Shown here piece by piece: positions 12,788 to 34,712 of a DNA stretch of 64,000 nt. The DNA lies in assembly GCA_964389315.1 (NCBI GenBank), contig CAYMDJ010000001.1, positions 543 through 64,542 on the forward strand. The letters run 5' to 3'. Under the pieces are notes generated by a model. The model made no database searches and was not told where the DNA came from. It saw only the letters and a list, made by a program, of their open reading frames with translations. Source of the stretch: an uncultured archaeon. GTDB lineage: Archaea; Aenigmatarchaeota; Aenigmatarchaeia; QMZP01. The stretch's first letter is position 1; every line of letters starts with the position of its first letter. Both the position numbers and the translations under genes were made by a program.

Positions 12788-12812
12788 TGATTTATTTCAA
12801 TCTTTAAATAGG

Positions 12813-16517: not shown

Positions 16518-16546
16518 GTTTCTGATTGGTTTGCAGATTTAAACTA

Positions 16547-16819
16547 TCAGTATGATTCGTGGCTTGCGTGGGAGGAGTGGGAGGAGTGGGAGCCGTGGCT
16601 GGCGTGGTGGCCGTGCTGGGCGGTGACAGTGCCTGCATTCCAGGATATGTCAAAGCTGTTGGTGTGGTCGGCGGCAACCTCGGGCAGGAATGAGAGTATT
16701 GATATCGATGCCAGGAAGGCGCCAAGGCTGGCTGCCTTGTGCTTGGCAACCCTCCCCCTGTTGTCCAGGAGGAAGTCTGAGAACGTGTTCTTTATCTTGG
16801 GCAGGATTTCCCTCTTCAT
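16547..16819 (-). CDS. Putative precursor peptide or small protein (90 aa) whose C-terminus carries six tandem His-Xaa-Ser triplets (HAS-HGS-HSS-HSS-HAS-HES-Y), following a hydrophobic segment.
   Basis: Translated by hand: MKREILPKIKNTFSDFLLDNRGRVAKHKAASLGAFLASISILSFLPEVAADHTNSFDISWNAGTVTAQHGHHASHGSHSSHSSHASHESY. The RBS AAGGGAG sits 4 nt before the ATG. Confidence 0.6.
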   Translation of the reverse strand: MKREILPKIKNTFSDFLLDNRGRVAKHKAASLGAFLASISILSFLPEVAADHTNSFDISWNAGTVTAQHGHHASHGSHSSHSSHASHESY

Positions 16820-16883
16820 TCAACTCCCTTATTATTTGGGAACCTTCAAATAAATAGCTGAGTGGCGATTCGGTAAACGTCGC

Positions 16884-17351: not shown

Positions 17352-17373
17352 GGAAATATTTTGTATACGGCGT

Positions 17374-18411: not shown

Positions 18412-18446
18412 TTTATGTTATTGGGGATTGGGATTAATAACCTGAC

Positions 18447-19886
18447 CTATTTCATTATGTTATCGTTCCTGTACCAGCTTAGGAAGGTTTTCCTGTCCCT
18501 TTCTGAGAAGACCAGCCTCCTGGTTATTGATTCCAGAACGTGGTTGTTAATCTTGCAGCGGTCATCCATGGCGAGCTTGGAGATTATTGTTCCCTGGGCA
18601 GCGTGTGTGTATATCGGACAGATGCCGCAGAACGGGTTCCATGCGCAGTTGTCGCAGAGGTATCCCTGCTTTGAGGATACGTCAATCATGCTGGTAGCAG
18701 TCTTGTTGTTGAAGACCCTGTTGTAGGGTGTGGTCTTTGCGTTTCCGAGCCTCAGCTCCTTGAAGAGCTTGCCCTCATCGCAGGTGTGTATGTCTCCCTT
18801 GTAGTTATAGAACAGCTGCCCGATAGCAGCTCCGCAGGGTGACTGTATGTCAACGAACATCGGATCCCATCTCTGCAGCAGCTTCTTGAGGAAGATGACT
18901 GTCAGATGCTCAAAGAACGGGGTCCTGGCATTGGTCTCTATTATGTAATCCAGCGTTTCGTCCCAGAACTTCAGGTATTCCTCGGGTGTGTAGCCTATGC
19001 TGTTCCATGCCTTGCCTGCAAGGCCTATGTTGTTCATGAACCTCAGGAAGATTCCGTCGAACCCGAGCCTGATATATTCGTCCACCATCTCCCTGCCATA
19101 ACCGAGTGAATGCCTGGTTATGGTGGTAAGGGCCCTGAGGTTGAAGTCGTGCTTCCATTCGTTCTTCATTCTCCCTATCCAGTATACAACGTCATCGTAA
19201 GTTCCCTTGCCATCGATGTATTTCCTGTTCCTGTTGTGGAGCTCCCTGGGGCCGTCCAGGGATGTTGCAATTCCCATAAGCCTCCTCTTGGCCAGGCTTC
19301 TGAGTATGTCCTCGTCCATTAGCGTGAGGTTTGTTACGAGCCTGAAATTCATTTTCTTGCCCGCTTTTCTGGATTTCTCCCTGGCGTAGTCAATTATGTA
19401 TTCCACCATAGGGAAGTTCATGAGGCAGTCCCCTCCCTGGAACTCTATCACGAGGCTGTCAGATGGGGTTTTCAGTATGAAGTCGACCACAGACCTTGCG
19501 GTTTCCTGGTCCATGTCATGCCCCCGCGATCCCTCACTGACCATGGAATGGCAGTATACGCAGGCGGAGTTGCACCTCATCGTGGGTGTGATTATATGGA
19601 GCGTGGGCGGCCTGAAGAGGAAGTGGTTCCTTTCTGCATAGGACCTGACGACATCCCTTACATTCCTCTCGGTGAGGATTATTCCCTTCTGTTCAAGGAA
19701 GGAGAAGAGAGTCGGGTCTTCCTCAACCCTCTCCAGCCTGAGGAGTTCATGCTCTTGCTCAGATAGGACTGCCCATGCACCGTGGTCTGTGGTCACAAGA
19801 TAACAATCTTCCAGCTTCTTGGAAACGAAATAGTTCGATGTATATTGCTTATCAGAGAAATCTGAGCTGAGGTGGGTTATTTCCAT
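18447..19886 (-). CDS. Radical SAM/SPASM enzyme with a roughly 100-aa N-terminal extension, which may be a peptide-recognition (RRE-like) domain.
   Basis: CNSACVYCHS cluster at about residue 105, GGDCLMNF motif, C-terminal CDNCAWNPFCGICP and a further Cys. Confidence 0.75.
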   Translation of the reverse strand: MEITHLSSDFSDKQYTSNYFVSKKLEDCYLVTTDHGAWAVLSEQEHELLRLERVEEDPTLFSFLEQKGIILTERNVRDVVRSYAERNHFLFRPPTLHIITPTMRCNSACVYCHSMVSEGSRGHDMDQETARSVVDFILKTPSDSLVIEFQGGDCLMNFPMVEYIIDYAREKSRKAGKKMNFRLVTNLTLMDEDILRSLAKRRLMGIATSLDGPRELHNRNRKYIDGKGTYDDVVYWIGRMKNEWKHDFNLRALTTITRHSLGYGREMVDEYIRLGFDGIFLRFMNNIGLAGKAWNSIGYTPEEYLKFWDETLDYIIETNARTPFFEHLTVIFLKKLLQRWDPMFVDIQSPCGAAIGQLFYNYKGDIHTCDEGKLFKELRLGNAKTTPYNRVFNNKTATSMIDVSSKQGYLCDNCAWNPFCGICPIYTHAAQGTIISKLAMDDRCKINNHVLESITRRLVFSERDRKTFLSWYRNDNIMK

Positions 19887-19966
19887 TTTATCACATTTTA
19901 GATTGTCGGGATTATATTTAAATCCGGTTAAACATGAACAGGACCTGGTGGATATTTAGCGTGGTG

Positions 19967-22003
19967 TTAATTATAGGAGGCGTCTGATATGCACCTCTCC
20001 ATTATTGAGGGGTCTATTATCTGGTGGCAGGCATCGGGATTCTTTTCTGCAAGGGCATTGCATAGTATTCTTATGTCAGGCTCGGTTATGTTTGTGCATA
20101 GTTCATTTTTGCCTGTTGAGGAGGCGAACTCAAGTATGCAGGAATCCCTGCCAGCCTCGCCCAGGAGCATGCATTCCTCAGGGTTGCCACCAATCAGGGC
20201 GAGGCAGTTGGACCTATACCAGTCAAGGTCTATGTAATTGCAGTATTGCATGTTCTTCGTGAGGAAGGCCAGGCAGAACATCTTCTCGTTGATTGGCCTG
20301 CCCCCACACTCCTGAGAGCCTGTCTCGACGCCCTCTCTGCAGAGGGAGGCTTCTTTGCTGCCTTCTATTCCCTCGCAGAAAGAGGTGTTATAATTATCAA
20401 CTGCCATGGCTATATAGTAATTATCATCAACCGTTATCTGCATTGTCTTGCTTGCAGGAGAGCCTGTGCGGCCGCTGGAATCGATGGGTGTGTATTCTAT
20501 CTTTAGAAAGTCTCCCTCCTCCAGTCCGCTAAGTTTTGTCTGGCTTCCCTCTCCGAAAAGTTTGCCGTTAACATACCATCTGTATTCTGATTCTCCTTCT
20601 ATGCTCAGGCCGAAATAAATTCCCTTTGCAGAGACCTGGGAACCCGGGTATAAAATCTTCGGGTTTGTTACTATGCCCCTGGCAAACGGGGGCAGGTCCG
20701 TTATCTTGATGGTTTCTGAATTTACTGGCTCGCCCTCGAGCCCTGTAAAGTCTATCGGATGGTATGCGGCTCTTATCTCGTCGCCATCCTTTACTGGAAC
20801 CAGTGAGAGGTCCAGGGGATTTGAGCGGGCGTTTTCTATGGGCTGGTTGTTCTTATACCAGACAAGTGGGGATATTGGTTCCGGCATCCTCTCAATGTCG
20901 TTCGGTGAGTGGTATTCAGTATGGAGATGGACATAACCGTTATTTGCGTCGAACCGGAGGGAAATGTATGCGCTCGGTCTTTTTGTGTTGGTAAGTAAGC
21001 CATATGTCTTTGTGCTGGTGTTCGTTCCCTGGTATTCGACCATTAAGGATATGTTGTGTATCCCGTCTCCCCTGCAGAAATCGCTTGTTATGAACGTCTC
21101 CGCATACCTTCCATTAGCGGGACGGGGTTCCCATGGTCCATCATCGCAGCGGAACCAAATCCTGTCCATGCTGTCATTGTATTCGGCCCTTATTATGATG
21201 TAATCGTAAAGCGTCATGTTCATGGAATTTTTCTCCTCCTGTGGGAAAATCAGGTCCTTAAGGTTCGGGTTATACAATTCTGTATATGGCTGGTCTGTCT
21301 TGGAGACTGAATAGGATGTGTATTCACCACCAGGTGTTTTGAATGCAAGAGTATTCTCCCCTTCGGAGAGTGAGTCGCTGCTTATGGAAACCGAACCTGA
21401 ATCGTAGCATGTCCATTCCTGCGGATGCTGCTCTGTGCCGTATATGATTTTGTCATGGTTCAGCGCAATCCGCAGCTTGATGCTGTTATTCACTGTATTC
21501 ATGTAAAGATTGATTGGATAATCCTCTGTAAAACCGTAGAGGGTGCTGCCGAGGATCTTGGTGTATTTGAAATGGTCGCTCCCGGATGGGAGGGCCGAGT
21601 TATCAAAGAAAGTGTATGATGTTATGAATTCTGTTATGGTGGCGTTGTTGATGAATTCGATGGAGTTGTTCGTTATCTTAATGTCGCTTTCATTGCTACA
21701 GGGCCCTGCAACGCCCTTGTCAAGGTCATAGCACATATTGTCCCTGAAAACCATCTCGTATAGCGGGGACCATGGCTCGTATTGTGAAATGCATATCCCA
21801 TTGGCTGACTTGTTTATGAGGGAGAATGTGATTGACTGTCCTTGAAAGAGCACATCGAGATTGTTGGGATTCTCTATATCGAGCCATTCATTAATCCCGC
21901 CCCCTGCAGAGCCTGTTTCCGTGGGCAACGGTTGCAGAACATGAAGGAGCATGATGATTATAAGCACGGCCAGTGGAAGCATTGCATACGTGAGCTTATT
22001 CAT
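19967..22003 (-). CDS. Secreted N-glycosylated protein (678 aa) with a Cys-rich C-terminal region.
   Basis: Signal peptide MNKLTYAMLPLAVLIIIMLLHVL, many N-x-S/T sites, and about 18 Cys in the last 140 aa. It overlaps the upstream rSAM gene by 8 bp. Confidence 0.6.
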   Translation of the reverse strand: MNKLTYAMLPLAVLIIIMLLHVLQPLPTETGSAGGGINEWLDIENPNNLDVLFQGQSITFSLINKSANGICISQYEPWSPLYEMVFRDNMCYDLDKGVAGPCSNESDIKITNNSIEFINNATITEFITSYTFFDNSALPSGSDHFKYTKILGSTLYGFTEDYPINLYMNTVNNSIKLRIALNHDKIIYGTEQHPQEWTCYDSGSVSISSDSLSEGENTLAFKTPGGEYTSYSVSKTDQPYTELYNPNLKDLIFPQEEKNSMNMTLYDYIIIRAEYNDSMDRIWFRCDDGPWEPRPANGRYAETFITSDFCRGDGIHNISLMVEYQGTNTSTKTYGLLTNTKRPSAYISLRFDANNGYVHLHTEYHSPNDIERMPEPISPLVWYKNNQPIENARSNPLDLSLVPVKDGDEIRAAYHPIDFTGLEGEPVNSETIKITDLPPFARGIVTNPKILYPGSQVSAKGIYFGLSIEGESEYRWYVNGKLFGEGSQTKLSGLEEGDFLKIEYTPIDSSGRTGSPASKTMQITVDDNYYIAMAVDNYNTSFCEGIEGSKEASLCREGVETGSQECGGRPINEKMFCLAFLTKNMQYCNYIDLDWYRSNCLALIGGNPEECMLLGEAGRDSCILEFASSTGKNELCTNITEPDIRILCNALAEKNPDACHQIIDPSIMERCISDASYN

Positions 22004-22943
22004 GCTCTATTATTTGTTTCGAATCTTTAATCACCTTTCCCATTACAGGAACGAATTCTGAAGGACCATATCTTTCTGCATACTCCTTCCAGGGGCCTTC
22101 ACATATCAGATCAAAGCGGCATCTCTTGCACTGGTCGAACTTGGCCTTTCCCTGGGTTTTCCTCAGCCGGTCGAAGTTCCTTGTTATTCTCTTTGCATCG
22201 ATTATCTCTGAAGGTGGCATGTATAGCTCTGAGCAATGCCTCTCATAGCCCTTCATGAAGCAGAAGGGATAGGCCTCTATCATGACAGGAGCCTCGTTCG
22301 AGACCGCAATATCTATTGCATCGTGGACGTATTTCATGACCTCTGATTTCCTGGGCACGAGCAGATTGAAGTTCTTCCATGCGTTGCCTACAGGGTGTAT
22401 GAAGGCCAGCTGGAACTGGTCCACCCTGAGGTCTGTAAATAGCTGGACGATATCCTGGAGGTGCCTGGAGTTTGGCTTGGTTATTACGGAGTTCATTACG
22501 ACTCGCTGCCCGAACTCCTTGAGGTTCCTTATTCCCCGGACCGCCTGGTCAAAGGCGCCGGGAGACCTCGTTATATAGTCATGTATTTCCTGAGTGTGCC
22601 CATGGATTGCAGGGGCGAACTCTGTCACACCCGCCCCGATCAGGCTGCGGACAAAGGGTTTATAGCACAGCCTCCTTCCGTTGGTCTGGATCTGGACGTG
22701 TTCGTATCCGATGTCCCTTGCGTGCCTTATTATCTCACAAAGGTCATTCCTCATGGTTGGTTCTCCGCCTGTAAGGACCACCTCATTTGCGCCGTGCGAG
22801 AAGCCAATCTCGAGGTTCCTCTTGACCTGTTCTGTGGAGAGGTCTCCTAGGTGCTTGTTGTGAGCCTGGGGGCATGAGAGGCAGTTGTTGTTGCAGGAAA
22901 ATCCCACCTTCAGGTCAAGGCGCTTTGTTTTTTCTTTGGCCAT
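21996..22943 (-). CDS. Radical SAM protein of the CNNNCxxC type. It is the closest paralog of 10198-11106.
   Basis: SCNNNCLSC cluster, GGEPT motif, C-terminus CKRCRFDLICEGPWKEYAERYGPSEFVPV. Confidence 0.8.
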   Translation of the reverse strand: MAKEKTKRLDLKVGFSCNNNCLSCPQAHNKHLGDLSTEQVKRNLEIGFSHGANEVVLTGGEPTMRNDLCEIIRHARDIGYEHVQIQTNGRRLCYKPFVRSLIGAGVTEFAPAIHGHTQEIHDYITRSPGAFDQAVRGIRNLKEFGQRVVMNSVITKPNSRHLQDIVQLFTDLRVDQFQLAFIHPVGNAWKNFNLLVPRKSEVMKYVHDAIDIAVSNEAPVMIEAYPFCFMKGYERHCSELYMPPSEIIDAKRITRNFDRLRKTQGKAKFDQCKRCRFDLICEGPWKEYAERYGPSEFVPVMGKVIKDSKQIIEHE

Positions 22944-23001: not shown

Positions 23002-24015
23002 TTAAAATCTGAGCATCCTCCTAAAGGATTCATGCAGCTTGTTTATTAAAAATCTGATGATTTTCCTTTTTTTAAGGACCAGCGGGTTCGATAGTCCGAG
23101 CATGCTCATTGGAAGGAAGGCCTTCTTTCTGAATCTGATCGCTATCATAATCTCAATTAGCTTTATTTTTAGAAACGCGGGCAAGGAAACATTCTTGTAT
23201 CTTGATGTTCCCCCGGTCGATATTATGACCGACCTGCAGAAACCGTGATTAATCATATCATAATACACGAATAGCCTGCTTAGATAGCAATTCGTGTCAA
23301 CCGGATCAATTTCTTTGATGAGGCGCTCTTCCATGACTCGCTTTCCTATAAAGGATGGTGACAGAGCAGGCATGACATGGAGGGGGAAAAGAATCCGTGG
23401 CCGACTGCTTTTTGTGTTTATTTCAATTCCCCTGCAAATGTCATTAATCTCTCGCCTCGGGAGTTCGTAGAAAGCATCACCCTGATCGATGACGAATCCA
23501 GTGACTATTAGTGGTATGTTTTCTCTTGCTGCAATCCTTATAAACTCTTCATATTTGCTTCTGAAGCATACCTTGCACAATCTGTTTTCAAGGCTCTGTC
23601 CTCGCTCGAGAAATTTTTGACGAAGAATTTTTCTTAATCCATCATCCTGGTAGTAAAGGGAATCAAGGCCGAGAATCTCGATTGTTCTCTTGATGTTTTC
23701 AATCGCAGCGGGCGGGAGAAATCCGTTGTCTATAGTCACGGCAAGAACCCTTAATTTGTATTTTCTCGATAGGATATACGCAAGATAGGCGCTGTCCTTT
23801 CCGCCGCTTAACCCAAGCAGACAATGATATTTGTAAGGCCTGCCCTTTATCTTATTTATGGTTTTTTCCCAGTTCTTTCTGTAAAGATTCTTTAGTTTTT
23901 TATCGTCCCTGTGCTCCTTGCAAACGTGGCAGAAGTCGCCCCTGGGTATGCCAGATACGTATGTAGGGATTAGGCATTTCCTGCATTCTTCAGCGGAGTC
24001 TCTCATGATAGACAA
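23002..24015 (-). CDS. PP-loop ATP pyrophosphatase with an N-terminal zinc ribbon (TtuA/NcsA-like sulfurtransferase family).
   Basis: CRKC...CHVC at the N-terminus, LSGGKDS PP-loop, internal CKVC. The C-terminal roughly 80 aa is low-complexity, so the true stop may lie earlier. Confidence 0.6.
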   Translation of the reverse strand: MSIMRDSAEECRKCLIPTYVSGIPRGDFCHVCKEHRDDKKLKNLYRKNWEKTINKIKGRPYKYHCLLGLSGGKDSAYLAYILSRKYKLRVLAVTIDNGFLPPAAIENIKRTIEILGLDSLYYQDDGLRKILRQKFLERGQSLENRLCKVCFRSKYEEFIRIAARENIPLIVTGFVIDQGDAFYELPRREINDICRGIEINTKSSRPRILFPLHVMPALSPSFIGKRVMEERLIKEIDPVDTNCYLSRLFVYYDMINHGFCRSVIISTGGTSRYKNVSLPAFLKIKLIEIMIAIRFRKKAFLPMSMLGLSNPLVLKKRKIIRFLINKLHESFRRMLRF

Positions 24016-24085
24016 TTTCTTTTGTTATTTAAAACGTCATGCTTAAGTGTCCATGATAAGAAGCTTTGAGTTGGTTTTTTAATGA

Positions 24086-26029
24086 TTGTTGCTCAGAACT
24101 TTAATAGATTGTATGGGAGCCATATTCGGATATGTCGGTTTTGAAGACAACAATCTTGTTAGGAAAATGTCCAGACCAATGAGACATAGGTCAATGGATG
24201 GGTATAGGTATTACAAGAACAAGGACTTGGTCTTTGGCCAGGGGATTTCTAAGATCGGTGCTGATTGCTCTCCTGGACCAATCATAAGCGAGGATGGTGA
24301 TATCGTCCTTCTTTTTGACGGGCGCGTTTTTAGAGCAGATAAAATCAGGTCATCCCTTGAATCAGAAGGGCATGAATTCAAGACCGGTTTTAGCGGAGAG
24401 GTAATCCTTCATTTGTATGAGGAATGTGGGATGAAATTCCTTAACAGGATAAACGGTGATTTTGGGTTCTGTTTGTATGATTCCGGTAAAAGGAAACTTT
24501 TTTTGTGTTCTGATAACTCGGGGTCAAGGCCCATATATTACCATGAAAACGGCAGGGCGCTTGTTTTTGCGTCTGACATTAAACCTATCTTACAGTACGA
24601 TGTGTTTGAGAGGAAACTTGATGAGTACGCATTCAATTTGTTCTTGACCTATCTCTTTCTGCCAACAGAGAAGACCATGTTGCAGGGAATTAGGAGGGTC
24701 ATGCCATCCACTTATGTTGTTTTTGATTCGGGTTCTTTAGAGACCGTTAGATATTTTGAAATAAAAGAGAATATTGACAACACGAAGAGTGAGGAATATT
24801 TCATTAAGAAAACAAGAGCGGGGCTGGAAAGGGCCATAGATGACAGGTTTATTGATGGCGTTCCAATACACATGAGCCTGGGCGGCCTTGATTCCAGTGC
24901 AGTTGTAGGAATCCTCTCATCAAGAGCGGACGTCATCAATACGCATACGATAAGGTTTGATAACGAATTTGATGAGGGCGGGTTTGCAAGAGAGGTTTCG
25001 GAAATGCACGGAACAAGCCATCATGAATTTTATGTTGATGGTGATTCAATAGAGGGCTTTTACAAAAAAATGCTGGCAAATTTCAACTCACCCTCTGTCA
25101 TAAACATGGTTGCAATTAGCCTATATAGTATATTTTCAAAGATGGCTGGTAAGAGGTCGCTTTTTTTCAATGGAGAGGGTGCAGATGAGGTCTTTGGTGG
25201 CTTAAAGAACGAAAGTATGCTAAAATACAGGAGCCTTCTGAATATGCCTAAACCTGTAAGGAATTTTATAAGCAAGTCTTTTATTGCATCGGCCAACGGG
25301 ATGGGGGGTTTTGCTGATTTCATGCGGCTCAATAAGGGCCGGTTTGAGAGATCTACCATCAATGAATATGCTAAATTCCTCAAGGAATTGGTTTCCATGG
25401 ACAGGAGCTATGCGAACCTCACGCCAACCTTTTATTTTGATGGGTATGAAGCCGGTGTAAATTGTGATGGCAAAGACCTGTTTTTATACAGGAAAGGCCT
25501 CAATGACAAGCGTTTTTGTTATGTGAACAGACTAATGAAAATGGACACCGAATCCAGGGCGTATCTTGATGGTTTGGCAAGAAACGAAATAATATGCAGT
25601 TCTCGCGGACTGCTTAACAACTGCCCGTTCCTGGACAAGGAACTGATAATTTTTTCTTTCAAGGTTCCCATGAGGTATAAATTCAGAAGGAATTCAAATA
25701 AAGCGCTTTTGGCGAAGGCCACAAAAAATCTTTTTCCGAAGAGAGATTTGATTGGTAAGGGTTTGTTTACCAGGGGGGCACTTAGTGTTTATAACGACTA
25801 TTTTACTCAAAACCGCTCGCTTTTAGAGAACCTATTTGAGAAATCAGAGGTGTTCAACATGTTCAGAAGGGATTTTCTTGATAAAAACGTCAATCAACTT
25901 GCTAGGAGGTCCAGCGATTGCTTCAGCACAAAGGGTTTTTATAGAATCTCAAAAATACATACGCTGCTCTCGCTTGGTTTATGGTATGAACATTATTTCA
26001 ACGACGAGAAGATAAGCAATTTTTTCTGA
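24086..26029 (+). CDS. Asparagine-synthetase-B-like adenylating enzyme. The Ntn glutaminase Cys at position 2 is missing (TTG start; the N-terminus reads ..DCMGAIFGY).
   Basis: HRSMDG (similar to HRGPDG), and the SLGGLDSS PP-motif of the synthetase domain. It is about 640 aa, as in AsnB and the lasso-cyclase/amidotransferase relatives. Confidence 0.7.
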   Translation: MLLRTLIDCMGAIFGYVGFEDNNLVRKMSRPMRHRSMDGYRYYKNKDLVFGQGISKIGADCSPGPIISEDGDIVLLFDGRVFRADKIRSSLESEGHEFKTGFSGEVILHLYEECGMKFLNRINGDFGFCLYDSGKRKLFLCSDNSGSRPIYYHENGRALVFASDIKPILQYDVFERKLDEYAFNLFLTYLFLPTEKTMLQGIRRVMPSTYVVFDSGSLETVRYFEIKENIDNTKSEEYFIKKTRAGLERAIDDRFIDGVPIHMSLGGLDSSAVVGILSSRADVINTHTIRFDNEFDEGGFAREVSEMHGTSHHEFYVDGDSIEGFYKKMLANFNSPSVINMVAISLYSIFSKMAGKRSLFFNGEGADEVFGGLKNESMLKYRSLLNMPKPVRNFISKSFIASANGMGGFADFMRLNKGRFERSTINEYAKFLKELVSMDRSYANLTPTFYFDGYEAGVNCDGKDLFLYRKGLNDKRFCYVNRLMKMDTESRAYLDGLARNEIICSSRGLLNNCPFLDKELIIFSFKVPMRYKFRRNSNKALLAKATKNLFPKRDLIGKGLFTRGALSVYNDYFTQNRSLLENLFEKSEVFNMFRRDFLDKNVNQLARRSSDCFSTKGFYRISKIHTLLSLGLWYEHYFNDEKISNFF

Positions 26030-26049
26030 AGGCCCATTGGGACAACTTC

Positions 26050-27180
26050 CTAAGTCATTTTTTTAATAATGTCCATTGGTCTTGGAGGACAGCCCGGAAC
26101 CCATATAAGGTTATGCTTCCTAGCGAGTTCCCTTGTGCAGTTCCCTACACATACGACCTTGCCGTGCTTCTCTGGGACGTCGCTTTTTCCTGATAGGATG
26201 TCAACCCTCCTGAGGATTCCGTTATAGAAGAATATCGGCCACAATAAAGGGTTTCTCATTATCTGGATATTTAAGTCGATAAGTGCGCGGGTGCAACCCG
26301 AACATGTTTCGTCTGTGAACCAGTAATAGAAGTTGAATTTCCTGTCATGATCTGTCGGTTTCTTGAATTTCATCTTATGCGCAGATAGCTCGTTAAGAAC
26401 TTCCTTTGGGAAGGATATTCGCCTTTTCCCTGAAGCGATTCTGAGGTGCTCTATCTTCATTGGGTCCATTCCCATGAGCATAGAGGACAGGAAATCCACC
26501 TTAAGGGCGTCTGTTCCTATGACAAGCAGGTTTATGTTTTTTACTGGATTGCCTGTAGAACCGGGGCCATTCCCTTCAACGCCGCTAGTTGCATCCACCA
26601 TGGAAAGGTCTGGCTTTATGGCAGAATATAGCTTTGCTATGTTCCTGTGAAGGTCTCTGTGAGAAGACCGCTTTTCCTGAAGTGTCAGGAGCCCTTTCTG
26701 GTTCTTAAGGCAAAGGGTAACCCCTGTTTGTGAATGGGTCTTGAGCTTGGATATGTTTATGTATTCTGAGTTAAGAACCAGTCTCGGTATTGATATCTTG
26801 CGGCCGGCTGCATTGAGGTATATCCTCTCGGTCTCATATAAGTCTACTAGGGCCACGCCGGTCTTTTTGCAGAGTTTCTTGTATCCTGTTTTATTGAAAA
26901 CGTGGCGGGTGTTTTCTGATACAGGACCCTCTCCCACGGCTATTTCATCTATATCAATGTCTTGGAGGTATTCTATAAGACCTTCCACTACCTTTAGGTT
27001 TGTTATGTAAGGTGTCCCGGGGCGGTATTCGCCGACTATGTTAGGCTTTATGAAAACCTTTTTTTTCTTTGGTCTGTAACCAAAACTGGCGAGTGATTCG
27101 TATACGTCTTGTCTGGTTTTCCTTCCTAGTTTGAATATTTCAGGGTTCATGAAATCACTAGATGTTATTATATTTTTCAT
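26050..27180 (-). CDS. DUF362-family protein (function unknown, frequently Fe-S associated).
   Basis: Motifs IKPNIV, LKTHSQTGVTLCLKNQKG and VDATSGVEGNGP. It overlaps the upstream rSAM gene by 23 bp. Confidence 0.55.
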   Translation of the reverse strand: MKNIITSSDFMNPEIFKLGRKTRQDVYESLASFGYRPKKKKVFIKPNIVGEYRPGTPYITNLKVVEGLIEYLQDIDIDEIAVGEGPVSENTRHVFNKTGYKKLCKKTGVALVDLYETERIYLNAAGRKISIPRLVLNSEYINISKLKTHSQTGVTLCLKNQKGLLTLQEKRSSHRDLHRNIAKLYSAIKPDLSMVDATSGVEGNGPGSTGNPVKNINLLVIGTDALKVDFLSSMLMGMDPMKIEHLRIASGKRRISFPKEVLNELSAHKMKFKKPTDHDRKFNFYYWFTDETCSGCTRALIDLNIQIMRNPLLWPIFFYNGILRRVDILSGKSDVPEKHGKVVCVGNCTRELARKHNLIWVPGCPPRPMDIIKKMT

Positions 27181-28384
27181 TCATCACAAGCGAATAACAG
27201 AAAGGGACGATTCTGTTGTCTTTTGTCAGCTGCGCGGTCATACACCTTTCTATGTTATCAATATCTAATGTGTATTTATCTGGCCATGACCTGATATAGA
27301 CATTCAGTTCGCGCGGGCTCTTGTTTTTTAGCACTCTTTTTGCTATAAGTTTCAGTGTAATGGCCTTTCTTCTCTTTAATATGTTTCCCAAAAACATCAG
27401 GTTTTTTGACCTTGATTTCTTGAATACCTCAAAATCGATACCCTCTGACAGGAACTCTATCTTTTTGTTGTTTATAAAAATTGTTATTCTCAGTGAGCAG
27501 GGAAGTATTGTGCTATGGTTTTTAATTAACCTTTTTATTTTCTCCTGCAGAACACACTCCAAAAGAAGCTGTTTCTTACCTATATGTATAGCATTGCTTA
27601 ATACTTTTATTATTTCGGACAGGAATATCCTTTCTGGGTTGCCATGCCTTCCGATATGAACGGCGCTTCTTATTCTAAGTTCGTTTATGTTTCTTTTCAT
27701 GAGGCAGAAATCTATGATATTGGGGATTTCTTTTTCATTCCAGTTTTTTATGGCCATGAAAGAAAATATTGTCATTATTTTCGAATGCTTGAGGTTATCC
27801 ATGGCTGCCATCTTGGCAGGGAGGTTGTCTCCTTCTATCTTTTTCATCAATTTCCTGTCAAGCGAATTGATTGACAGATGAACTGCACCGAGGCCTGCAT
27901 CCTTTAGCTTCCCGACATACCCGGGGCTCGAAAGCTTTATACCGTTTGTGAGAAGGCTTACCGTCTTTCCATTTTTTGATGCGAACCTTATTATCTCAGA
28001 AAGTTCTTTCCTCAGGGCAGGTTCGCCGCCAGAGAGCCTTATGTATTTGCCTCCGAATCTTGCTATCTCTGACTTTATATCTTGCAGGCTCTTTTCCTTC
28101 TCCTTTTTTTTCGGAAGATAACAGAAAAAGCAGTTGTTGTTGCAGTCGTGTGTGAGTGTTATGGTCAGGGAATCAAAAAACTTTCTCTTTCCAGGTTTGT
28201 GGTTGAGTATTTCCCTGTATAACCAGGCATCCTTTTCTATAAGCGACCTTGTTTTCCCATGTGAAGGACATGTTTTAACCATATATATCTTTCCACCCTC
28301 TTCTAAGATGTCTGAATCTATTTTTTCCATGCACACCGGGCAAATGCTTGTTGTCTTTTTTAAAGCTTTTATATTAATCACCAA
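27158..28384 (-). CDS. Radical SAM protein with an N-terminal zinc-ribbon-like motif (CPVC...CPSHG) and a CNNNCxxC cluster.
   Basis: THDCNNNCFFCY cluster, LSGGEPAL motif. It overlaps the upstream B12-rSAM gene by 11 bp. Confidence 0.7.
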   Translation of the reverse strand: MVINIKALKKTTSICPVCMEKIDSDILEEGGKIYMVKTCPSHGKTRSLIEKDAWLYREILNHKPGKRKFFDSLTITLTHDCNNNCFFCYLPKKKEKEKSLQDIKSEIARFGGKYIRLSGGEPALRKELSEIIRFASKNGKTVSLLTNGIKLSSPGYVGKLKDAGLGAVHLSINSLDRKLMKKIEGDNLPAKMAAMDNLKHSKIMTIFSFMAIKNWNEKEIPNIIDFCLMKRNINELRIRSAVHIGRHGNPERIFLSEIIKVLSNAIHIGKKQLLLECVLQEKIKRLIKNHSTILPCSLRITIFINNKKIEFLSEGIDFEVFKKSRSKNLMFLGNILKRRKAITLKLIAKRVLKNKSPRELNVYIRSWPDKYTLDIDNIERCMTAQLTKDNRIVPFCYSLVMNEKYNNI

Positions 28385-29888
28385 GCGACCGTCTATTAAA
28401 AATTCTTTTCAATGTAAAGTATATATAAAGGCGCGGCAGGCACATCTTCTTCCTTCCGCTGAAATTTATCCTTCTTTTCCTCGATAAGAAATCCCTTGGT
28501 TTCCTTACAACCAACATGAACGTGTAAAGGGGTTTCGGAGGCAGGAACCTGTGGATGTTGTGCCTTATGAGGAATGATGATAGCCTGCCGGGAACCATAT
28601 TCAGGACGTAGAGCGAATTGACAGACTTGGCAAGTTCCCTGTTGAAGGTGTCCCCCTTATGTGTGAAGAAGCTCGTATTCTCTGATTCCTCTATCCTATT
28701 CATCATCTCATCGTCCAGAAGGCCCATCTGCCTTGCTATCTTCACTATCTCTGTCTTGGGGAAATACCTGAGCCAGTATGTCTGGACGAATTCCACGCCG
28801 TTCTCGCTGTAGAACCTGGCCATCTCAAGCACGTCATCGCTCTTCTGCAGCGGGAGGCCTACCATGTTGTCAGTGGTTATGTGTATGCTCTCCTTCTTGA
28901 ACAGCCTTATTGCCTTCCTGGTGTCTTTTGTGGAGCATCTCCTGTTGAGGATGTTTCTTCCCAACTCCTTGTTGTGGGTCTGGACGCCCATCTCGATGGC
29001 CACACAACCTGCTTTTCTAAGCATGGATGCTGTGTCTTCCCTGACATTAGCAGGGTATATCCAGCAAAAGAAGGGGAGGCCAATCTCCTTCCCGTATCTT
29101 TCTGAGAACTCCCTCAGCCAGGCATGGTCGTGATTGAAGGTCTCGTCGTGGAATATTATCTCCCTGAATCCCGCCCTCTTGGCCAGCCTGAGCTCCTCTA
29201 TGACATTGCCTACGCTCCGCCTGCGCAGGTATTTGCCCTTGCCCATGTAAAGCTTCTTCATGTAGGAGTTGTTGCAGTAGGTGCACGAGAACGGGCACCC
29301 CCTACTCGTTATGGTGGTATACCTGTCAAAGAATCTGGGGACTATCTCGCTGAATATGGACTTGTCAGGGAACGGGAGGGAATCGAGGTCTTGTATAAGG
29401 GGCCTTACCGGATTCCTGTATATCTTTCTGCCCTTTTTGGACCAGACGTTGGCTATCCTTCGGGTGGAGCGTCCTGACTCGAGTGCGTCCGTGAGTTCCA
29501 GAAGGGCATGCTCGCCCTCACCTACCACTACGAAATCAACGAAATCCTTCCTTATAACCCGCCCGGGAACGGACGTAGGGTGTATGCCGCCGAACACTAT
29601 CGGGACTTTGGTGTGTTTCTTTATCTCCCTTGCAATCCTGCATGCCCAGGAATAGTTGTCTGATATTACAGAGAAGCACACCAAATCCGGATTAAGTTCC
29701 TTAATCTCTTTTAGCAGGATTTTTTTGAAACCAATGACCCTATGGAGCCACCCGGCCCTTATTACAGAGTCCATGAAGAGCATGGGATCGAAAACGAGCT
29801 CTGTCTGGTGGCCGGCTTGCTTCAGGACCGCTGAGAGATACTCGACCCCCAGGCAGTCTGTCTCCGGGTGCACAAAAACCACCTTCAT
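28374..29888 (-). CDS. Cobalamin (B12)-binding radical SAM enzyme (class B, methyltransferase-like).
   Basis: N-terminal Rossmann-like B12-binding region (MKVVFVHPETDCLGVEYLSAVLKQAGH ... VVVGEGEH), then the CPFSCTYC rSAM cluster. Confidence 0.75.
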   Translation of the reverse strand: MKVVFVHPETDCLGVEYLSAVLKQAGHQTELVFDPMLFMDSVIRAGWLHRVIGFKKILLKEIKELNPDLVCFSVISDNYSWACRIAREIKKHTKVPIVFGGIHPTSVPGRVIRKDFVDFVVVGEGEHALLELTDALESGRSTRRIANVWSKKGRKIYRNPVRPLIQDLDSLPFPDKSIFSEIVPRFFDRYTTITSRGCPFSCTYCNNSYMKKLYMGKGKYLRRRSVGNVIEELRLAKRAGFREIIFHDETFNHDHAWLREFSERYGKEIGLPFFCWIYPANVREDTASMLRKAGCVAIEMGVQTHNKELGRNILNRRCSTKDTRKAIRLFKKESIHITTDNMVGLPLQKSDDVLEMARFYSENGVEFVQTYWLRYFPKTEIVKIARQMGLLDDEMMNRIEESENTSFFTHKGDTFNRELAKSVNSLYVLNMVPGRLSSFLIRHNIHRFLPPKPLYTFMLVVRKPRDFLSRKRRINFSGRKKMCLPRLYIYFTLKRIFNRRSLGD

Positions 29889-30989
29889 CTGACCACTGAT
29901 ATAAGATATAAACGTTTGTTATTAATCTTTAATATGAAGGCTTCCCATGTTTTCTGGACAGGTTTGAGGGTCGCTGGTTATAAAATGGGGAGGAGATTCT
30001 CGTTCCCTCTTCCGATGCCGGTAAACCTTGCCATTGTTCCCACAGGCAGGTGCAACTCCATGTGCAGGACATGTAACATATGGAAGACTCCTGTTAGTGA
30101 TGAGCTCGATGCTGGTGAGTGGGACAGGATATTCAAATCCATCGGGAGGTCTCATCCCTGGGTAACGGCTTCTGAAGGCGAGCCCTTCCTGTCAAAGGAC
30201 CTTGTCGAGATAACAAGGAACCTCGTGGAGCACACGGACCCGCAGATAATGGTTTTTCCCACCAACGGGATTCTGACCGAGAAGATAACGGATGACGTCA
30301 GGGAGATTTTGGGGTTTTATGGCGGCATACTCATAATAAATTTCTCCCTTGACGGCGTCGGGAATCTGCATGACGAGATACGTGGGGTCAGGGGGAATTT
30401 CAGGAGGGTTGTTGACAGCGTATCTGCAATGAAGGACGTCAAAAGGGGTTCTGATAACCTGGTGGTTGGGATAAACACGGTGGTATCCAAACACAACATA
30501 AAAAAAATTGATGAGATATCTGACTTCGTTAAGAATGAGCTGAAGCCGGACTCTCATATCTTTGAGATTGCAGATAACAGGGAGGCTCTCAACAACGCCG
30601 GGATGGACCTGAGGCCTGGTTGCCAGGAGTATCTGGATGCCATTGGCAGGGTATCTGGAGATTCCAACGTCTTCCCTACAGGGTTCTTCAGGAAGAGATA
30701 CTACAGGCTGGTTGAAGAGATGCTCCTGAAAGGCAGGGGGATTATCCCGTGCTATGCGGGCATCGCATCAGCGCAGATATCATCAACAGGAGAGGTATGG
30801 GCATGCTGCAGGATGTGCGAGTCAATGGGGAACCTGAGGGAGAATGGTTATGATTTCAGGAAGGTGTGGAAAAGCAGGCAGGCAATGGATGTGAGGAGGG
30901 GCATAAAGGAGAGGAAGTGCTGGTGCACATCAGCCAACGCGAACTACACGAACATATTATGTAGTTTCATAAGGCTTGCCGGAGTTTAG
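29868..30989 (+). CDS. Radical SAM/SPASM enzyme. The true start is probably the internal Met near 29934 or 29987, which would avoid the divergent overlap with the B12-rSAM gene.
   Basis: GRCNSMCRTC cluster, SEGEPFL motif, and C-terminal CCRMCESMGN ... CWCTSANANY. An AT-rich divergent promoter (ATAAGATATAAAC, TTATTAATCTTTAAT) lies at 29889-29935. Confidence 0.75.
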   Translation: MHKNHLHLTTDIRYKRLLLIFNMKASHVFWTGLRVAGYKMGRRFSFPLPMPVNLAIVPTGRCNSMCRTCNIWKTPVSDELDAGEWDRIFKSIGRSHPWVTASEGEPFLSKDLVEITRNLVEHTDPQIMVFPTNGILTEKITDDVREILGFYGGILIINFSLDGVGNLHDEIRGVRGNFRRVVDSVSAMKDVKRGSDNLVVGINTVVSKHNIKKIDEISDFVKNELKPDSHIFEIADNREALNNAGMDLRPGCQEYLDAIGRVSGDSNVFPTGFFRKRYYRLVEEMLLKGRGIIPCYAGIASAQISSTGEVWACCRMCESMGNLRENGYDFRKVWKSRQAMDVRRGIKERKCWCTSANANYTNILCSFIRLAGV

Positions 30990-31833
30990 GATTATGGATG
31001 TATCAGTAGGTGTGATGGCTCACAACGAGGAGAAAAACATAGGCAGTCTTCTGGATTCGCTTATAAACCAGGAAGAGGAGATTGTGAGGATAATGGAGAT
31101 TATCGTTGTGAGCTCCGGCTCTGTTGACAGGACGGACAGAATAGTTGAGAGCTTTTGCAGGGCTGACCGGAGGGTCAGGCTTGTAAAGGAGCCTGAGAGG
31201 AGGGGGAAATCGAATGCGATAAACCTTTTTCTGGAGAGGAGCAGAGGTGATGTCAACGTTCTTGTCAGCGGCGATGTTGTTCCAGGAAGGAATTCTGTTG
31301 AAAGGGTGTGCTCTATGCTTGTTGGAAATGTTGGAATCGCTGTCGGTAGGGTGGTACCAGAGGAGAGCGGAAGCTTGTTGGGGAGGGTTGTTGGCCTTGA
31401 GTGGAGGATTCATCATGAAGTTTCACTGAAAAGGCCGAAGTTCGGTGAGATGATAGCCTTCAGGGGGGTTGGCAAGATTGCAGAAACATCGGTTGATGAG
31501 GAATTCATAGGTATGCTCGTAGTAAAGTCAGGGCTTGAATCGGTGTATGTCCCCGGAGCCGTGGTAATGAACCGAGGCCCCAGGACAATGAAGGATTTCA
31601 TAAAGCAGAGGAGGAGAATCTATTCCGGTCATTTGGAGCTTTTCAGGACAGGGTATGAACCGGCAACCGTGAAACTCCTTCCTGTGCTGAGGGGGTTCAT
31701 GAAGTCAGGCGGCGCCGGGGCGGGTGTATTAATTTCAGCAGTGCTTCTGGAGGCAGTTTCCAGGGCGCTTGGCTTCTACGATTTTGTGTTCAACAGGGGG
31801 AGGCACATGGTCTGGGATATGGTAAAGAGGTGA
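30976..31833 (+). CDS. Glycosyltransferase family 2.
   Basis: VGVMAHNEEKNIGSLLDSL ... IIVVSSGSVDRTDRI. GT-A fold with DxD-type motifs. Confidence 0.7.
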   Translation: MPEFRIMDVSVGVMAHNEEKNIGSLLDSLINQEEEIVRIMEIIVVSSGSVDRTDRIVESFCRADRRVRLVKEPERRGKSNAINLFLERSRGDVNVLVSGDVVPGRNSVERVCSMLVGNVGIAVGRVVPEESGSLLGRVVGLEWRIHHEVSLKRPKFGEMIAFRGVGKIAETSVDEEFIGMLVVKSGLESVYVPGAVVMNRGPRTMKDFIKQRRRIYSGHLELFRTGYEPATVKLLPVLRGFMKSGGAGAGVLISAVLLEAVSRALGFYDFVFNRGRHMVWDMVKR

Positions 31834-31839
31834 GGGCTT

Positions 31840-32742
31840 ATGAAAAAACCGGTTGTTAGCGTTATTGTTGTGGTTTATAATGAAGAAACGTATATCGGGA
31901 AGTGCATCGAATCTATCCTGCGCCAGTCGTTTGGTGATTTTGAACTTATAGTTGTTGATGCCGCCTCAACGGACAGGACGCAGGAGATAGTCCGGGGGTT
32001 CGGAGACAAGAGGATAAGATATTTCAGGCTAAGTGAAAGGGTCAATATAGCAAAATCCAGAAACTTCGGGATAGGGGCATCAAGAGGGGGATATGTTTTC
32101 TTTACAGATGGGGATTGCTCACCCGCAAGAGGATGGATCAAGGAAGGCGTCAGGTGCCTGAAGGAGCAGGGGGTTGTAGGCTGTGAGGGCAGGACTGTTT
32201 ATGTTTCAAGCCGATACCGGCCCGGCCTGATGGAGAACGTGGTGTATAACAATGGGGGTGGTTTTTTTCCAACGAACAACGTGGCATACAAGAGGGCGGT
32301 CTTTGACGAGGCGGGCTTCTTTGACGAATCCCTGGATGTGGCAGAGGACACTGATATGGGTACGAGGGCATCCAGGCTGGGTGAAATTGTTTTTGTAAAT
32401 GAAATGCTGGTCATTCATGAAAAGAAGACGCTTTCCATGGGGTCGTTTTTCAGGAGGGTATACGTGACAGATAGCGTAGTCAGGATGGTTAAAAGGCATG
32501 GCAGATGCCGGGTTCGCGGACCGCGCGGGATTCCTTTTTATAATATTGGGAGGGTGGTTTTCCCATTCTATTATTTCGTTATGTTTTTCCCCCCGCTGCT
32601 CATAATTGTTCTAATGTTCAGAAAAATTAAAATGGGCAGCCTGAAGGATTTCCTGATGATTCCGCTGTATTATGTGCGGGTTGTTTTTTTCAGGTTTTTT
32701 GTCTGGAAAACGGCAATAAAGGAAAGGTCCTTTTTTATATGA
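31840..32742 (+). CDS. Glycosyltransferase family 2 with a C-terminal hydrophobic segment.
   Basis: VSVIVVVYNEETYIGKCIESIL ... LIVVDAASTDRTQEI ... FFTDGDCSP. Confidence 0.7.
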   Translation: MKKPVVSVIVVVYNEETYIGKCIESILRQSFGDFELIVVDAASTDRTQEIVRGFGDKRIRYFRLSERVNIAKSRNFGIGASRGGYVFFTDGDCSPARGWIKEGVRCLKEQGVVGCEGRTVYVSSRYRPGLMENVVYNNGGGFFPTNNVAYKRAVFDEAGFFDESLDVAEDTDMGTRASRLGEIVFVNEMLVIHEKKTLSMGSFFRRVYVTDSVVRMVKRHGRCRVRGPRGIPFYNIGRVVFPFYYFVMFFPPLLIIVLMFRKIKMGSLKDFLMIPLYYVRVVFFRFFVWKTAIKERSFFI

Positions 32743-33860: not shown

Positions 33861-34712
33861 CTAACCCAATATTGATTTAAGGACCCTTGGTATCGAGCTT
33901 ATGATGTCAGAGGCTATCAGGCCCGGACCGATCTCCCTTTCTGCCATGTCCCCTGCCAGCCCTGTCAGATGTGCGCCAGCGCATGCTGCATTGAGCGGGG
34001 GGTTGCCCATTGCGAGAAAGCCTCCGCAGACGCCGGCAAGGATGTCGCCGGTCCCGCCCTTTGTCATCCACGGGTTCCCGGTCCTGTTTAGGAGGGTCTC
34101 CCTTCCGTTGGATATCACGTCAACCCTTCCCTTGAGGAGGATTGTCGTGCTGAGCTTCCTCGCGAGCTTCATTGTTTCCTGCTCCCGTTTCTTGAGGTCA
34201 GCACTCGGTTGGGAACCGGAAAGCAGGGAGAACTCCCTTGCGTGGGGTGTCAGTATGAAGCTCCTCTTTATGACGCCAGGATTCCCTGAGGCAGCGGATA
34301 TGGCATCGGCGTCAACGACGCAGGGTTTTTCAAGGAGATTAAGGAAGTTCTGGACGAAAACCGCCGTGTCAGACCTGTTGTCCAGGCCGCCCCCTATTAC
34401 GACAGCATCGAAGTTCTCTGCCTCATCGAGGAGGAATTTCGTGTGCCAGTTGTTCAGGTAGTCGGTCCGTATGGGGTCTGCTATGAGGTCAGGCGAGAAT
34501 GAGGATATCACATCCGCTGCCCGCTCTGGCGCACAAACGTGGACGAGGTCTGTTCCCATGCGCATTGCCGCGAGGGCAGAGAGCGCCGGAGCGCCCGAAT
34601 ACGTCCTGCTCCCGCCTATGACGACCAGCCTTCCGAAGTCTCCCTTGTGTGACCAGTCTTTCTTCTTAGGATAGCATGCCTTCAGCATCTGGGGCGTTAC
34701 ATATTTTGGCAC
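33861..34712 (-). CDS. ADP-dependent NAD(P)H-hydrate dehydratase (YjeF C-terminal domain / Nnr).
   Basis: GDFGRLVVIGGSRTYSGAPALSALAAMRMG ... KGGTGDILAGVCGG. Confidence 0.75.
   Translation of the reverse strand: MPKYVTPQMLKACYPKKKDWSHKGDFGRLVVIGGSRTYSGAPALSALAAMRMGTDLVHVCAPERAADVISSFSPDLIADPIRTDYLNNWHTKFLLDEAENFDAVVIGGGLDNRSDTAVFVQNFLNLLEKPCVVDADAISAASGNPGVIKRSFILTPHAREFSLLSGSQPSADLKKREQETMKLARKLSTTILLKGRVDVISNGRETLLNRTGNPWMTKGGTGDILAGVCGGFLAMGNPPLNAACAGAHLTGLAGDMAEREIGPGLIASDIISSIPRVLKSILG

Follow-up and report, generated by a model that had tools for sequence, protein, structure and literature searches.

A cobalamin-dependent radical SAM enzyme, a short Tes-like radical SAM enzyme and a DUF362 protein encoded as one unit beside glycosyltransferase genes in an uncultured archaeon

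Results

A compact three-gene unit with a divergent neighbour

We analysed a window of 64,000 nucleotides from an uncultured archaeon (assembly GCA_964389315.1, contig CAYMDJ010000001.1, positions 543 to 64,542), and within it a module whose core is three closely packed genes. In order of transcription they encode a cobalamin (B12)-binding radical S-adenosylmethionine (SAM) enzyme of class-B type (gene 1), a short radical SAM enzyme that resembles Tes/GDGT-MAS (gene 2) and a long-form DUF362 protein (gene 3). Upstream of gene 1, and divergent from it, a second unit begins with a radical SAM/SPASM enzyme and continues with two family 2 glycosyltransferases, GT2a and GT2b; coordinates are collected in Table 1. 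The host is an archaeon: the window also carries genes for Orc1/Cdc6, a PolD-small-subunit-like protein, a family-B DNA polymerase, PheS, GlyRS and an archaeal PheT, which scores 541 bits (cut-off 283).

The open reading frame (ORF) coordinates, domains, motifs and the 11- and 23-bp overlaps given for the three-gene unit in a preliminary description of this DNA were reproduced exactly when the longest ORFs are taken. Gene 2 begins at TTG 28384 or GTG 28381 and encloses the TAA stop of gene 1 (28374-28376). With the gene 2 stop at 27158-27160, a gene 3 start at ATG 27180 gives the 23-bp overlap and one at ATG 27150 a 7-nt gap; both forms of this junction occur in relatives, the overlap in contig L089 and the gap in contig L001. 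The two divergent units had also been said to share an AT-rich promoter region that reached 29935, with the SPASM gene starting at 29868. The spacer is there, but its limits had to be redrawn: ATG 29934 is almost certainly the true start of the SPASM gene, in place of GTG 29868, where its longest ORF (373 aa) begins, and the spacer is therefore the 45 AT-rich bp from 29889 to 29933. By inspection it contains two TATA-like elements (TATAAGATATAAA at 29900-29912 and TTATTAATCTTTAAT at 29919-29933), and it may serve as the promoter for both units. For GT2a the probable start is a Met seven codons into its ORF.

Gene 1 is a class-B type radical SAM enzyme outside the curated families

Gene 1 has the class-B architecture, in which an N-terminal B12-binding domain (PF02310, residues 13-132, 65.6 bits against a cut-off of 32.1) precedes a radical SAM core (PF04055, residues 193-359, 83.2 bits) with the canonical CX3CX2C motif, here CPFSCTYC. 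The placement among class-B families that had been suggested for it could not be made, since no curated cut-off was reached. Against 26 curated models of B12-dependent radical SAM and related enzymes all scores were far below the cut-offs, the best (score/cut-off in bits) being HpnJ 110/578, a ladderane B12-radical SAM enzyme 107/360, BchE 92.3/481 and PhpK 90/600; the subfamilies to which gene 1 is not assignable include HpnJ, BchE, PhpK, TsrM, KedN5, the MCR Gln methyltransferase, HpnR and BzaD. Its matches in the PDB are distant (AprD4, TsrM and TokK, E 1e-13 to 1e-7). The clade is large and uncharacterised (3705 matches at E<1e-20), many of its named members come from Omnitrophota and Woesearchaeota, and every orthologue with at least 50% identity lies no more than three genes from a GT2. 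C-methylation of an unactivated carbon is the most likely reaction by analogy with established class-B chemistry; BchE, HpnJ and AprD4 are members of the B12-radical SAM family that are not methylases.

Gene 2 is a relative of Tes with an altered set of metal sites

Gene 2 combines Zn_ribbon_HMPTM (PF23545, 63.7 bits) with Radical_SAM (PF04055, 88.3 bits), and its CPVC...CPSHG and CNNNCFFC (CX3CX2C) motifs were confirmed. Among solved structures the best match by sequence is GDGT-MAS (7TOL, E 1.4e-31), and the AlphaFold 2 (AF2) model (mean predicted local distance difference test score, pLDDT, 86.5) matches the same entry with E 2.8e-29 and a query TM-score (TMq) of 0.79, the runner-up being MoaA at 1e-11. 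Scores against curated models were 152 bits for TrsS (cut-off 490) and 140.1 bits for Tes (NF045702; cut-off 450).

GDGT-MAS has four metal sites, and its Met439 and Tyr459 are conserved in 1000 archaeal homologues (PMC9433317). We compared these positions in 12 members of the gene 2 subfamily and 18 Tes-like sequences. The rubredoxin-like site of gene 2, C15-X2-C18-X20-C39-X2-H42, has the spacing of C9/C12/C33/H36 in GDGT-MAS and is kept in all 12 close relatives and in all 18 Tes-like sequences. The SAM cluster (C81/C85/C88) is retained, as are the cysteines of the C-terminal cluster (C296/C381/C396) and the C-terminal 'C...PFC' motif. The N-terminal auxiliary [4Fe-4S] site, made of three Cys and a His, has been deleted: no Cys occurs between H42 and C81, and the corresponding columns hold gaps or Lys in all 12 subfamily members as against Cys or His in all 18 Tes-like sequences. 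In addition, Met439 of GDGT-MAS is replaced by Arg365, His440 by Ser366 and the His-Tyr459 pair by Ala384-Gln385. Across 126 full-length representatives of the clade, 116 have at most one Cys in the N-terminal-cluster region, and the commonest residues in the Met439 column are R, F, W and A, Met not being among these four.

We considered and rejected the idea that gene 2 is a true Tes orthologue: the labile Met, the conserved Tyr and the N-terminal auxiliary cluster are all lost, and the Tes score is less than a third of its cut-off. Gene 2 is a structural relative of Tes that lies outside Tes proper. Also discarded was the impression of a very rare family, left by a word-indexed search (about 16 close relatives) and a metagenome pattern scan (one), and overturned by an exhaustive profile search in which the short Tes-like clade comprises at least 150 clusters at 50% identity with E<=1e-73; 1201 proteins were recovered at E<=1e-30.

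Gene 3 has a LarA-like fold and an additional four-cysteine domain

Gene 3 is a member of PF04015 (DUF362; 147.7 bits against a cut-off of 24), a family for which we found no function in the literature and which belongs, with the LarA N-terminal domain, to Pfam clan CL0471 (PMC11770544). Its AF2 model (pLDDT 94.8) has a LarA-like two-lobed fold followed by a C-terminal four-Cys domain. A Foldseek search of the PDB with this model returned seven matches at E<=1e-3, all of them LarA-family racemases (probability 0.99-1.0, E 1e-6 to 4e-4), led by 7S91 and 6D6Z (E 1e-6, probability 1.0). A sequence search of the PDB recovered no LarA, and there was no similarity detectable by HMMER. The residues K147, K159, H174, D196 and D229 are invariant in DUF362 relatives, a set defined within the family and not by residue-level alignment to LarA. 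No larBCE genes were recognised within the window; the WbuX-like PP-loop protein near the module has a faint LarE match (E 2.7e-4).

The C-terminal 100 residues contain four cysteines, C293, C296, C348 and C364, that are invariant in 46 relatives of gene 3 and occur in the motifs CSGC...GNC...PGCPP. These align to the proximal-cluster motifs of the [NiFe]-hydrogenase (hydrogenase-2) small chain with a non-significant E of about 0.5. PF01058 is the only second family that recurs, being matched by 13 of the 46 members (best E 0.0048; 0.45 for the window protein). We read gene 3 as the union of a LarA fold with a NuoB-like domain whose motifs point to a putative [4Fe-4S] cluster.

The arrangement is conserved in other contigs

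Orthologues of the B12-radical SAM enzyme, the second radical SAM enzyme, DUF362 and GT2a are kept together in contigs L001 (an uncultured relative), L089, L092 (Woesearchaeota) and L007 (Omnitrophota). Because the arrangement is seen again in these contigs, we regard it as more than chance, and the earlier claim that the three genes form one tight unit tied to the divergent SPASM/GT2 unit is upheld. GT2a is the neighbour most consistently retained with the module; its orthologues are 60% identical in L001, 55% in L089, 43% in L092 and 38% in L007, and each adjoins DUF362 and radical SAM genes. The gene order in L001 is GT2, GT2, SPASM, B12, B12, methyltransferase, Tes-like, DUF362, radical SAM, B12, HxsC4-like radical SAM and a 676-aa Ig-like protein. 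Identities in L089 are 62% for the B12 enzyme, 48% for the Tes-like enzyme, 57% for DUF362, 55% for GT2a, 48% for GT2b and 52% for the second SPASM enzyme of the window. There a SPASM enzyme leads the Tes-like-DUF362 operon, and the B12-radical SAM gene, divergent from it, leads the GT2-GT2 operon, an exchange which implies that the two divergent units trade members and belong together. When L089 6464-13332 is set against positions 26050-32742 of the window, the head genes of the operons are swapped and the Tes-like-DUF362 and GT2-GT2 pairs are unmoved; this is a local rearrangement around the presumed bidirectional promoter.

L092 carries DUF362, four intact B12-radical SAM genes with remnants of a fifth, and the Tes-like gene, together with GT2, GT4, CapK-like and sulfatase/phosphodiesterase genes. 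Within the Omnitrophota, DUF362 adjoins the Tes-like and B12-radical SAM genes in L007, and in L002 and L003 the B12 gene is followed by the Tes-like gene in the company of an ABC transporter, further B12-radical SAM enzymes, GT2, Wzy_C, CapK and ATP-grasp genes. Eight independent contexts were compared for the short Tes-like clade. Seven have a B12-radical SAM gene no more than two genes away, which in four contexts is the immediate upstream neighbour on the same strand; DUF362 occurs in four. Positions 1-11215 of another contig, L093, encode a polyketide synthase (PKS) of more than 2847 aa (KS-AT-KR), an acyl carrier protein (ACP), an AMP-ligase, a radical SAM enzyme, a 674-aa B12-radical SAM enzyme and then a short Tes-like enzyme, a layout from which it follows that the B12/Tes-like pair can also serve polyketide or fatty-chain pathways. 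We found no description of this gene association in the literature, and none of the three subfamilies is characterised; their components belong to known superfamilies.

Long DUF362 genes and their neighbours at large

A pattern scan of GTDB species representatives gave at least 600 matching stretches, and 483 of those listed encode a relative of the long DUF362 protein. Neighbours were counted around 79 independent species-level long-DUF362 loci. A SPASM-type radical SAM gene is found in 27 (16 times as the adjacent upstream gene on the same strand) and a GT2 in 23 (at position -2 in 11); other neighbours are GT4 (16), NAD-epimerase/dehydratase (14), two groups of class-I methyltransferases (9 and 7), LPG_synthase_TM, B12-radical SAM and metallophosphoesterase (8 each) and a Wzx-like flippase (5). 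Radical SAM genes make up 8.4% of the genes up to three positions from DUF362 and 2.7% of those at six or more (odds ratio 3.3, p=9e-4). From these counts, a cassette of GT2, SPASM radical SAM and DUF362 genes recurs across phyla, and the window holds members of all three families. The co-occurrence of DUF362 with radical SAM enzymes, which the preliminary description had put forward for analysis, thus holds as an enrichment near the anchor gene but not as a rule for the individual locus.

Neighbouring genes

The plus-strand SPASM enzyme reached no curated family cut-off, and neither L089 nor L001 encodes a close orthologue of it; HpnH is among the curated matches of the SPASM enzymes in the window, far below its equivalog cut-off. 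The second SPASM enzyme is 52% identical to that encoded at L089 13350-14366, and 31-32% identical to the SPASM enzymes directly upstream of the Tes-like-DUF362 pair in L089 and of DUF362 in L007; its family, the one counted in 27 of the 79 loci, is typically found directly upstream of long DUF362 genes. GT2b ends in a membrane-like stretch, and a PMT_2 enzyme of the GT-C type is also encoded in the window. WbuX-like and AsnB-type amidotransferases are common in glycan clusters, and the pair that sits between the module and the adjoining block of genes on its other side (23002-26029) would belong to the radical SAM module.

G+C content is 0.41 across 24-28 kb, compared with about 0.50 for the whole window and 0.46-0.47 in neighbouring 2-kb blocks. 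This stretch (24000-28000) spans the AsnB, DUF362 and Tes-like genes and suggests a laterally acquired or fast-evolving island of surface variation. Rfam and tRNA scans of the window detected no riboswitch and no RNA genes, and the PADLOC defence-system models gave only generic viperin/radical SAM matches on the module.

The right edge of the cluster is marked by an NAD(P)HX dehydratase gene (Carb_kinase, 33861-34712, minus strand), whose counterpart in L089 (57% identity) occupies the equivalent place; as a repair enzyme it is an unexpected conserved neighbour. About 25 kb further right, the housekeeping genes are interspersed with two more GT2 genes (55735-56874 and 59025-59741), one of them nearest to the arsenosugar-type family TIGR04283 (123 bits against 182), and a small methyltransferase at 57733-58482 has weak similarity to the corrinoid-protein-associated CpaM.

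An adjoining HxS system

Next to the module, and on the same strand, lies a complete archaeal His-Xaa-Ser (HxS) radical SAM system (10198-22943), the relatives of which in bacteria were recently shown to act against phages by blocking the entry of DNA (PMC13128918). Its HxsA is an unannotated ORF, and the block also contains a prepilin-peptidase-like membrane protein, a PMT_2 glycosyltransferase and a sulfatase. Within it, the gene for a 678-aa secreted-looking protein overlaps an HxsC4-like radical SAM gene by 8 bp, and the pair is kept in L001 (45% and 75% identity); the 678-aa protein is a possible substrate or partner of that enzyme. Directly downstream of this array rich in radical SAM genes is a giant ORF that probably encodes a surface adhesin; truncated by the end of the window, it is missing from the ordinary ORF list.

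Table 1. Genes and other features of the module and its surroundings (window coordinates).
Feature	Position	Strand	Remarks
Gene 1, cobalamin-binding (class-B type) radical SAM enzyme, 504 aa	28374-29888	-	First in three-gene unit
Gene 2, short Tes/GDGT-MAS-like radical SAM enzyme, 408 aa	27158-28384	-	PF23545 + PF04055
Gene 3, long-form DUF362 protein, 376 aa from ATG 27180 (366 aa from ATG 27150)	26050-27180	-	PF04015
AT-rich divergent intergenic spacer, 45 bp	29889-29933		Sequence inspection
Radical SAM/SPASM enzyme, ~351 aa from ATG 29934	29934-30989	+	PF04055 48 bits, SPASM 24 bits
GT2a glycosyltransferase	30976-31833	+	PF00535 75 bits
GT2b glycosyltransferase, hydrophobic C-terminal segment	31840-32742	+	PF00535 107 bits
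Second radical SAM/SPASM enzyme, 351 aa	32735-33790	-	PF04055 43 bits; SPASM 18.8 bits (below 21.5 cut-off)
AsnB-type glutamine amidotransferase	24086-26029	+	TIGR01536 240 bits, below cut-off; Pfam Asn_synthase + GATase_7
WbuX-like N-acetyl-sugar amidotransferase	23002-24015	-	TIGR03573 91 bits, below cut-off
HxsC4-like radical SAM enzyme	21996-22943	-
678-aa secreted-looking protein, Cys-rich C-terminus	19967-22003	-	Faint Ig (AIR9) match
HxsB	18447-19886	-	395.7 bits (cut-off 370)
HxsD-like gene	16884-17351	-
HxsA, unannotated 90-aa ORF ending in HASHGSHSSHSSHASHES	16547-16819	-	Six H-x-S repeats
HxsC-like gene	12813-13652	-	206 bits (cut-off 268)
HxsC4-like radical SAM enzyme	10198-11106	-
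Giant ORF, >3202 aa, extends past left window end	1-9606	-	Laminin_G_3/ConA-like lectin domains 173 bits; neurotoxin receptor-binding-like domain; Big_9 Ig domain

Discussion

A tentative model for the module

We propose, with slightly less than even confidence, that the three genes supply the central radical chemistry for making a glycoconjugate of the cell envelope, in a pathway which would probably act on a membrane-associated substrate such as a lipid-linked glycan or a glycolipid. We favour glycoconjugates because of the GT2 enzymes, one of which has a hydrophobic tail, the WbuX/AsnB-type amidotransferases, PMT_2 and the glycan-type neighbours in relatives. In such a pathway a sugar unit would be assembled by the GT2 enzymes on a membrane-bound acceptor, and the cobalamin-dependent enzyme would then carry out a B12-type radical step, most likely the C-methylation of an unactivated carbon. 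The short Tes-like enzyme, its near-constant partner, would abstract a hydrogen by means of the SAM cluster, while its three-Cys C-terminal [4Fe-4S] cluster, the fourth site of which is free of a Met cap, might bind or hold an intermediate so that a C-C or C-X bond could form within the now polar active site (Arg365, Ser366, Gln385). In a last step DUF362, translationally coupled to the Tes-like enzyme, would place its NuoB-like [4Fe-4S] cluster beside the LarA-like cleft, and could either feed electrons to the clusters or the cobalamin of its radical SAM partners or reduce or isomerise the product. The preliminary description had arrived at radical-tailored sugars or peptide residues from the tight gene unit and its link to glycosyltransferases, both of which stand; what it had missed are the homology to Tes, the LarA fold and Fe-S motifs of DUF362, and the adjoining HxS system.

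Several observations weigh against the glycoconjugate pathway. All three subfamilies fall short of every curated family cut-off, and no product or activity is known for them. Genes for nucleotide-sugar synthesis, a flippase or an oligosaccharyltransferase were not identified in the window. The module is flanked by a giant surface protein and by the complete HxS peptide system. The NuoB-like assignment is based on motifs and on scores below threshold (E 0.0048-0.5). Two thirds of the long-DUF362 loci have no radical SAM gene within three genes, so the long DUF362 protein is not an obligate radical SAM partner. Finally, the short Tes-like/B12 pair stands in a PKS/ACP cluster without a glycosyltransferase gene in L093, and beside a sensor gene and three B12-radical SAM genes, again without a glycosyltransferase, in L094; the pair is therefore not confined to glycans.

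A bolder form of the proposal would make the two enzymes a portable pair that methylates and then couples: once the B12 enzyme had methylated its scaffold (glycan, glycolipid or alkyl), unactivated carbons would be linked (C-C or C-S/C-O) by the Tes-like enzyme at its open-site cluster, and the long DUF362 protein, as a fusion of LarA fold and NuoB domain, would be a hitherto unrecognised, dedicated Fe-S redox partner of the radical SAM enzymes, giving cross-linked or cyclised, methyl-branched surface glycoconjugates in archaea, DPANN-type archaea and Omnitrophota. We consider this a speculative scheme with only a small chance of being right as it stands.

Alternative substrates

Multi-B12-radical SAM clusters are typical of ribosomally synthesised and post-translationally modified peptides such as proteusins, and SPASM enzymes are mostly peptide maturases, so that a peptide or protein substrate has to be weighed. 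The radical SAM enzymes, with GT2 and PMT_2, would then C-methylate, cross-link and glycosylate HxsA, 9 kb away, or adjacent secreted proteins, to give a decorated surface protein or a defence effector. The complete HxS system on the same strand speaks for this, as do the HxsB- or HxsD-like genes beside an orthologous B12-radical SAM gene and GT2 in L090 and L091, the HxsC4-like enzyme and 676-aa Ig-like protein that come after the module in L001, and the ability of PMT_2 enzymes to glycosylate proteins. However, the AsnB gene on the opposite strand separates the module transcriptionally from the HxS block, no precursor-like small ORF lies inside the module, and HxsA-D alone suffice for bacterial HXS (PMC13128918). 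Moreover, the neighbours in Omnitrophota, Woesearchaeota and the 79 DUF362 loci are GT2, GT4, epimerase, Wzy and Wzx genes, with no HxS genes recognised among them, although precursor peptides were not searched for there. On balance we judge a peptide substrate unlikely. Hydrocarbon-chain chemistry, in which the B12/Tes-like pair would methylate and then couple or cyclise alkyl or isoprenoid tails (of membrane lipids, dolichol-type carriers or polyketide chains) with the GT2 enzymes supplying head groups only, would follow the precedent of Tes, GrsA/B, Gmm, HpnJ and the ladderane enzymes. GDGT-MAS, the one relative of gene 2 to have been characterised, is an enzyme of lipid C-C coupling, and gene 1 has its highest curated scores with the lipid-associated HpnJ and ladderane families; these scores, however, barely exceed those for BchE, PhpK and ApyD and are far below their own cut-offs, and in gene 2 Met439, Tyr459 and the N-terminal cluster have gone and polar Arg, Ser and Gln stand in their place. 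In the model and by sequence, gene 2 has basic amphipathic helices at residues 318-352, the B12/short Tes-like pair of L093 follows a giant PKS, ACP and AMP-ligase, and the NAD-epimerase, GT2 and LPG_synthase_TM genes near DUF362 resemble hopanoid sets of the hpnA/B/L type. Against this, there are no lipid-synthesis genes in the window, and the module is also found in Woesearchaeota, which are generally thought to be without lipid synthesis (PMC8941075). We hold a hydrocarbon substrate, too, to be improbable.

A role in cofactor biosynthesis, with gene 1 as the anaerobic Mg-protoporphyrin cyclase BchE and gene 2 as the hydroxymethylpterin methyltransferase (HMPTM) of methanopterin synthesis, is suggested by names: several relatives of gene 1 are annotated as BchE-like by JGI, the Pfam ribbon of gene 2 is called after HMPTM, and one relative is so annotated. 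Gene 1, however, scores 92.3 bits against the 481 required for BchE (TIGR02026), and the HMPTM assignment of MJ0619 was not corroborated, the protein having turned out to be GDGT-MAS (PMC9433317). No tetrapyrrole or pterin genes lie nearby, and the conserved neighbours, in this window and around the orthologues elsewhere, are glycosyltransferases. The circumstances under which the preliminary description would have fallen, assignment to such cofactor pathways and orthologues outside a glycosyltransferase context, therefore do not apply. On scores and literature we reject the BchE and methanopterin readings, which are effectively refuted; we leave them a negligible chance.

Implications

If the glycoconjugate proposal is right, Tes-type chemistry, known so far only for joining archaeal lipid tails, would extend to a distinct clade of at least 150 clusters (at 50% identity), whose active site has been remodelled and made polar and whose B12-radical SAM partner is nearly obligatory. 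It would also provide a first functional handle on the widespread DUF362 family, as a LarA fold with a NuoB-like Fe-S cluster in a multi-phylum cassette, and surface glycoconjugates tailored by radical enzymes would be relevant to host attachment and to virus resistance among uncultured archaea and nanobacteria. The short paralogues may in addition pass for Tes in surveys that infer producers of glycerol dialkyl glycerol tetraethers (GDGT) or of brGDGT, including the puzzling 'Tes' matches in DPANN genomes.

Comparison with known systems

Gene 1 shares the B12-binding Rossmann domain and radical SAM core of class-B enzymes (TsrM, TokK, GenK/Fom3-type, HpnJ, BchE, PhpK), and is detectably similar to the TsrM and TokK structures and to about 25 curated B12-radical SAM families; unlike the characterised members, its clade is often present in several copies per locus and adjoins GT2 genes. 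Gene 2 has in common with GDGT-MAS/Tes (MJ0619; 7TOL/7TOM; NF045702) the overall fold, the rubredoxin-like site, the CX3CX2C motif and the C-terminal cysteines. It differs from Tes in being about 100 residues shorter, in belonging to a clade that is almost always encoded beside a B12-radical SAM enzyme, and in a context of glycosyltransferases and not of lipid synthesis.

At the level of gene content, and at that level only, the hopanoid side-chain set (the NAD-epimerase hpnA, the GT2 hpnB, the radical SAM gene hpnH, the B12-radical SAM gene hpnJ and the LPG_synthase_TM-like hpnL) presents the same mix of families as is found around long DUF362 genes; here, in contrast, equivalog scores are far below the cut-offs, there is no squalene-hopene cyclase, and the host is an archaeon. 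Gene 3 shares its fold and clan with the LarA superfamily, the nickel-pincer nucleotide dependent 2-hydroxyacid racemases and epimerases, but with an identity of only about 10-14% and a template modelling (TM) score of only about 0.4, and it has the extra C-terminal four-Cys domain. The likeness of that domain to NuoB and the [NiFe]-hydrogenase small subunit (PF01058) lies in the order and form of the ligand motifs (CxxC, GxC, PGCPP) and in the alpha/beta character of this region of the model; in contrast to NuoB, which is paired with NuoD or a large subunit, the domain of gene 3 is fused to a LarA-like one.

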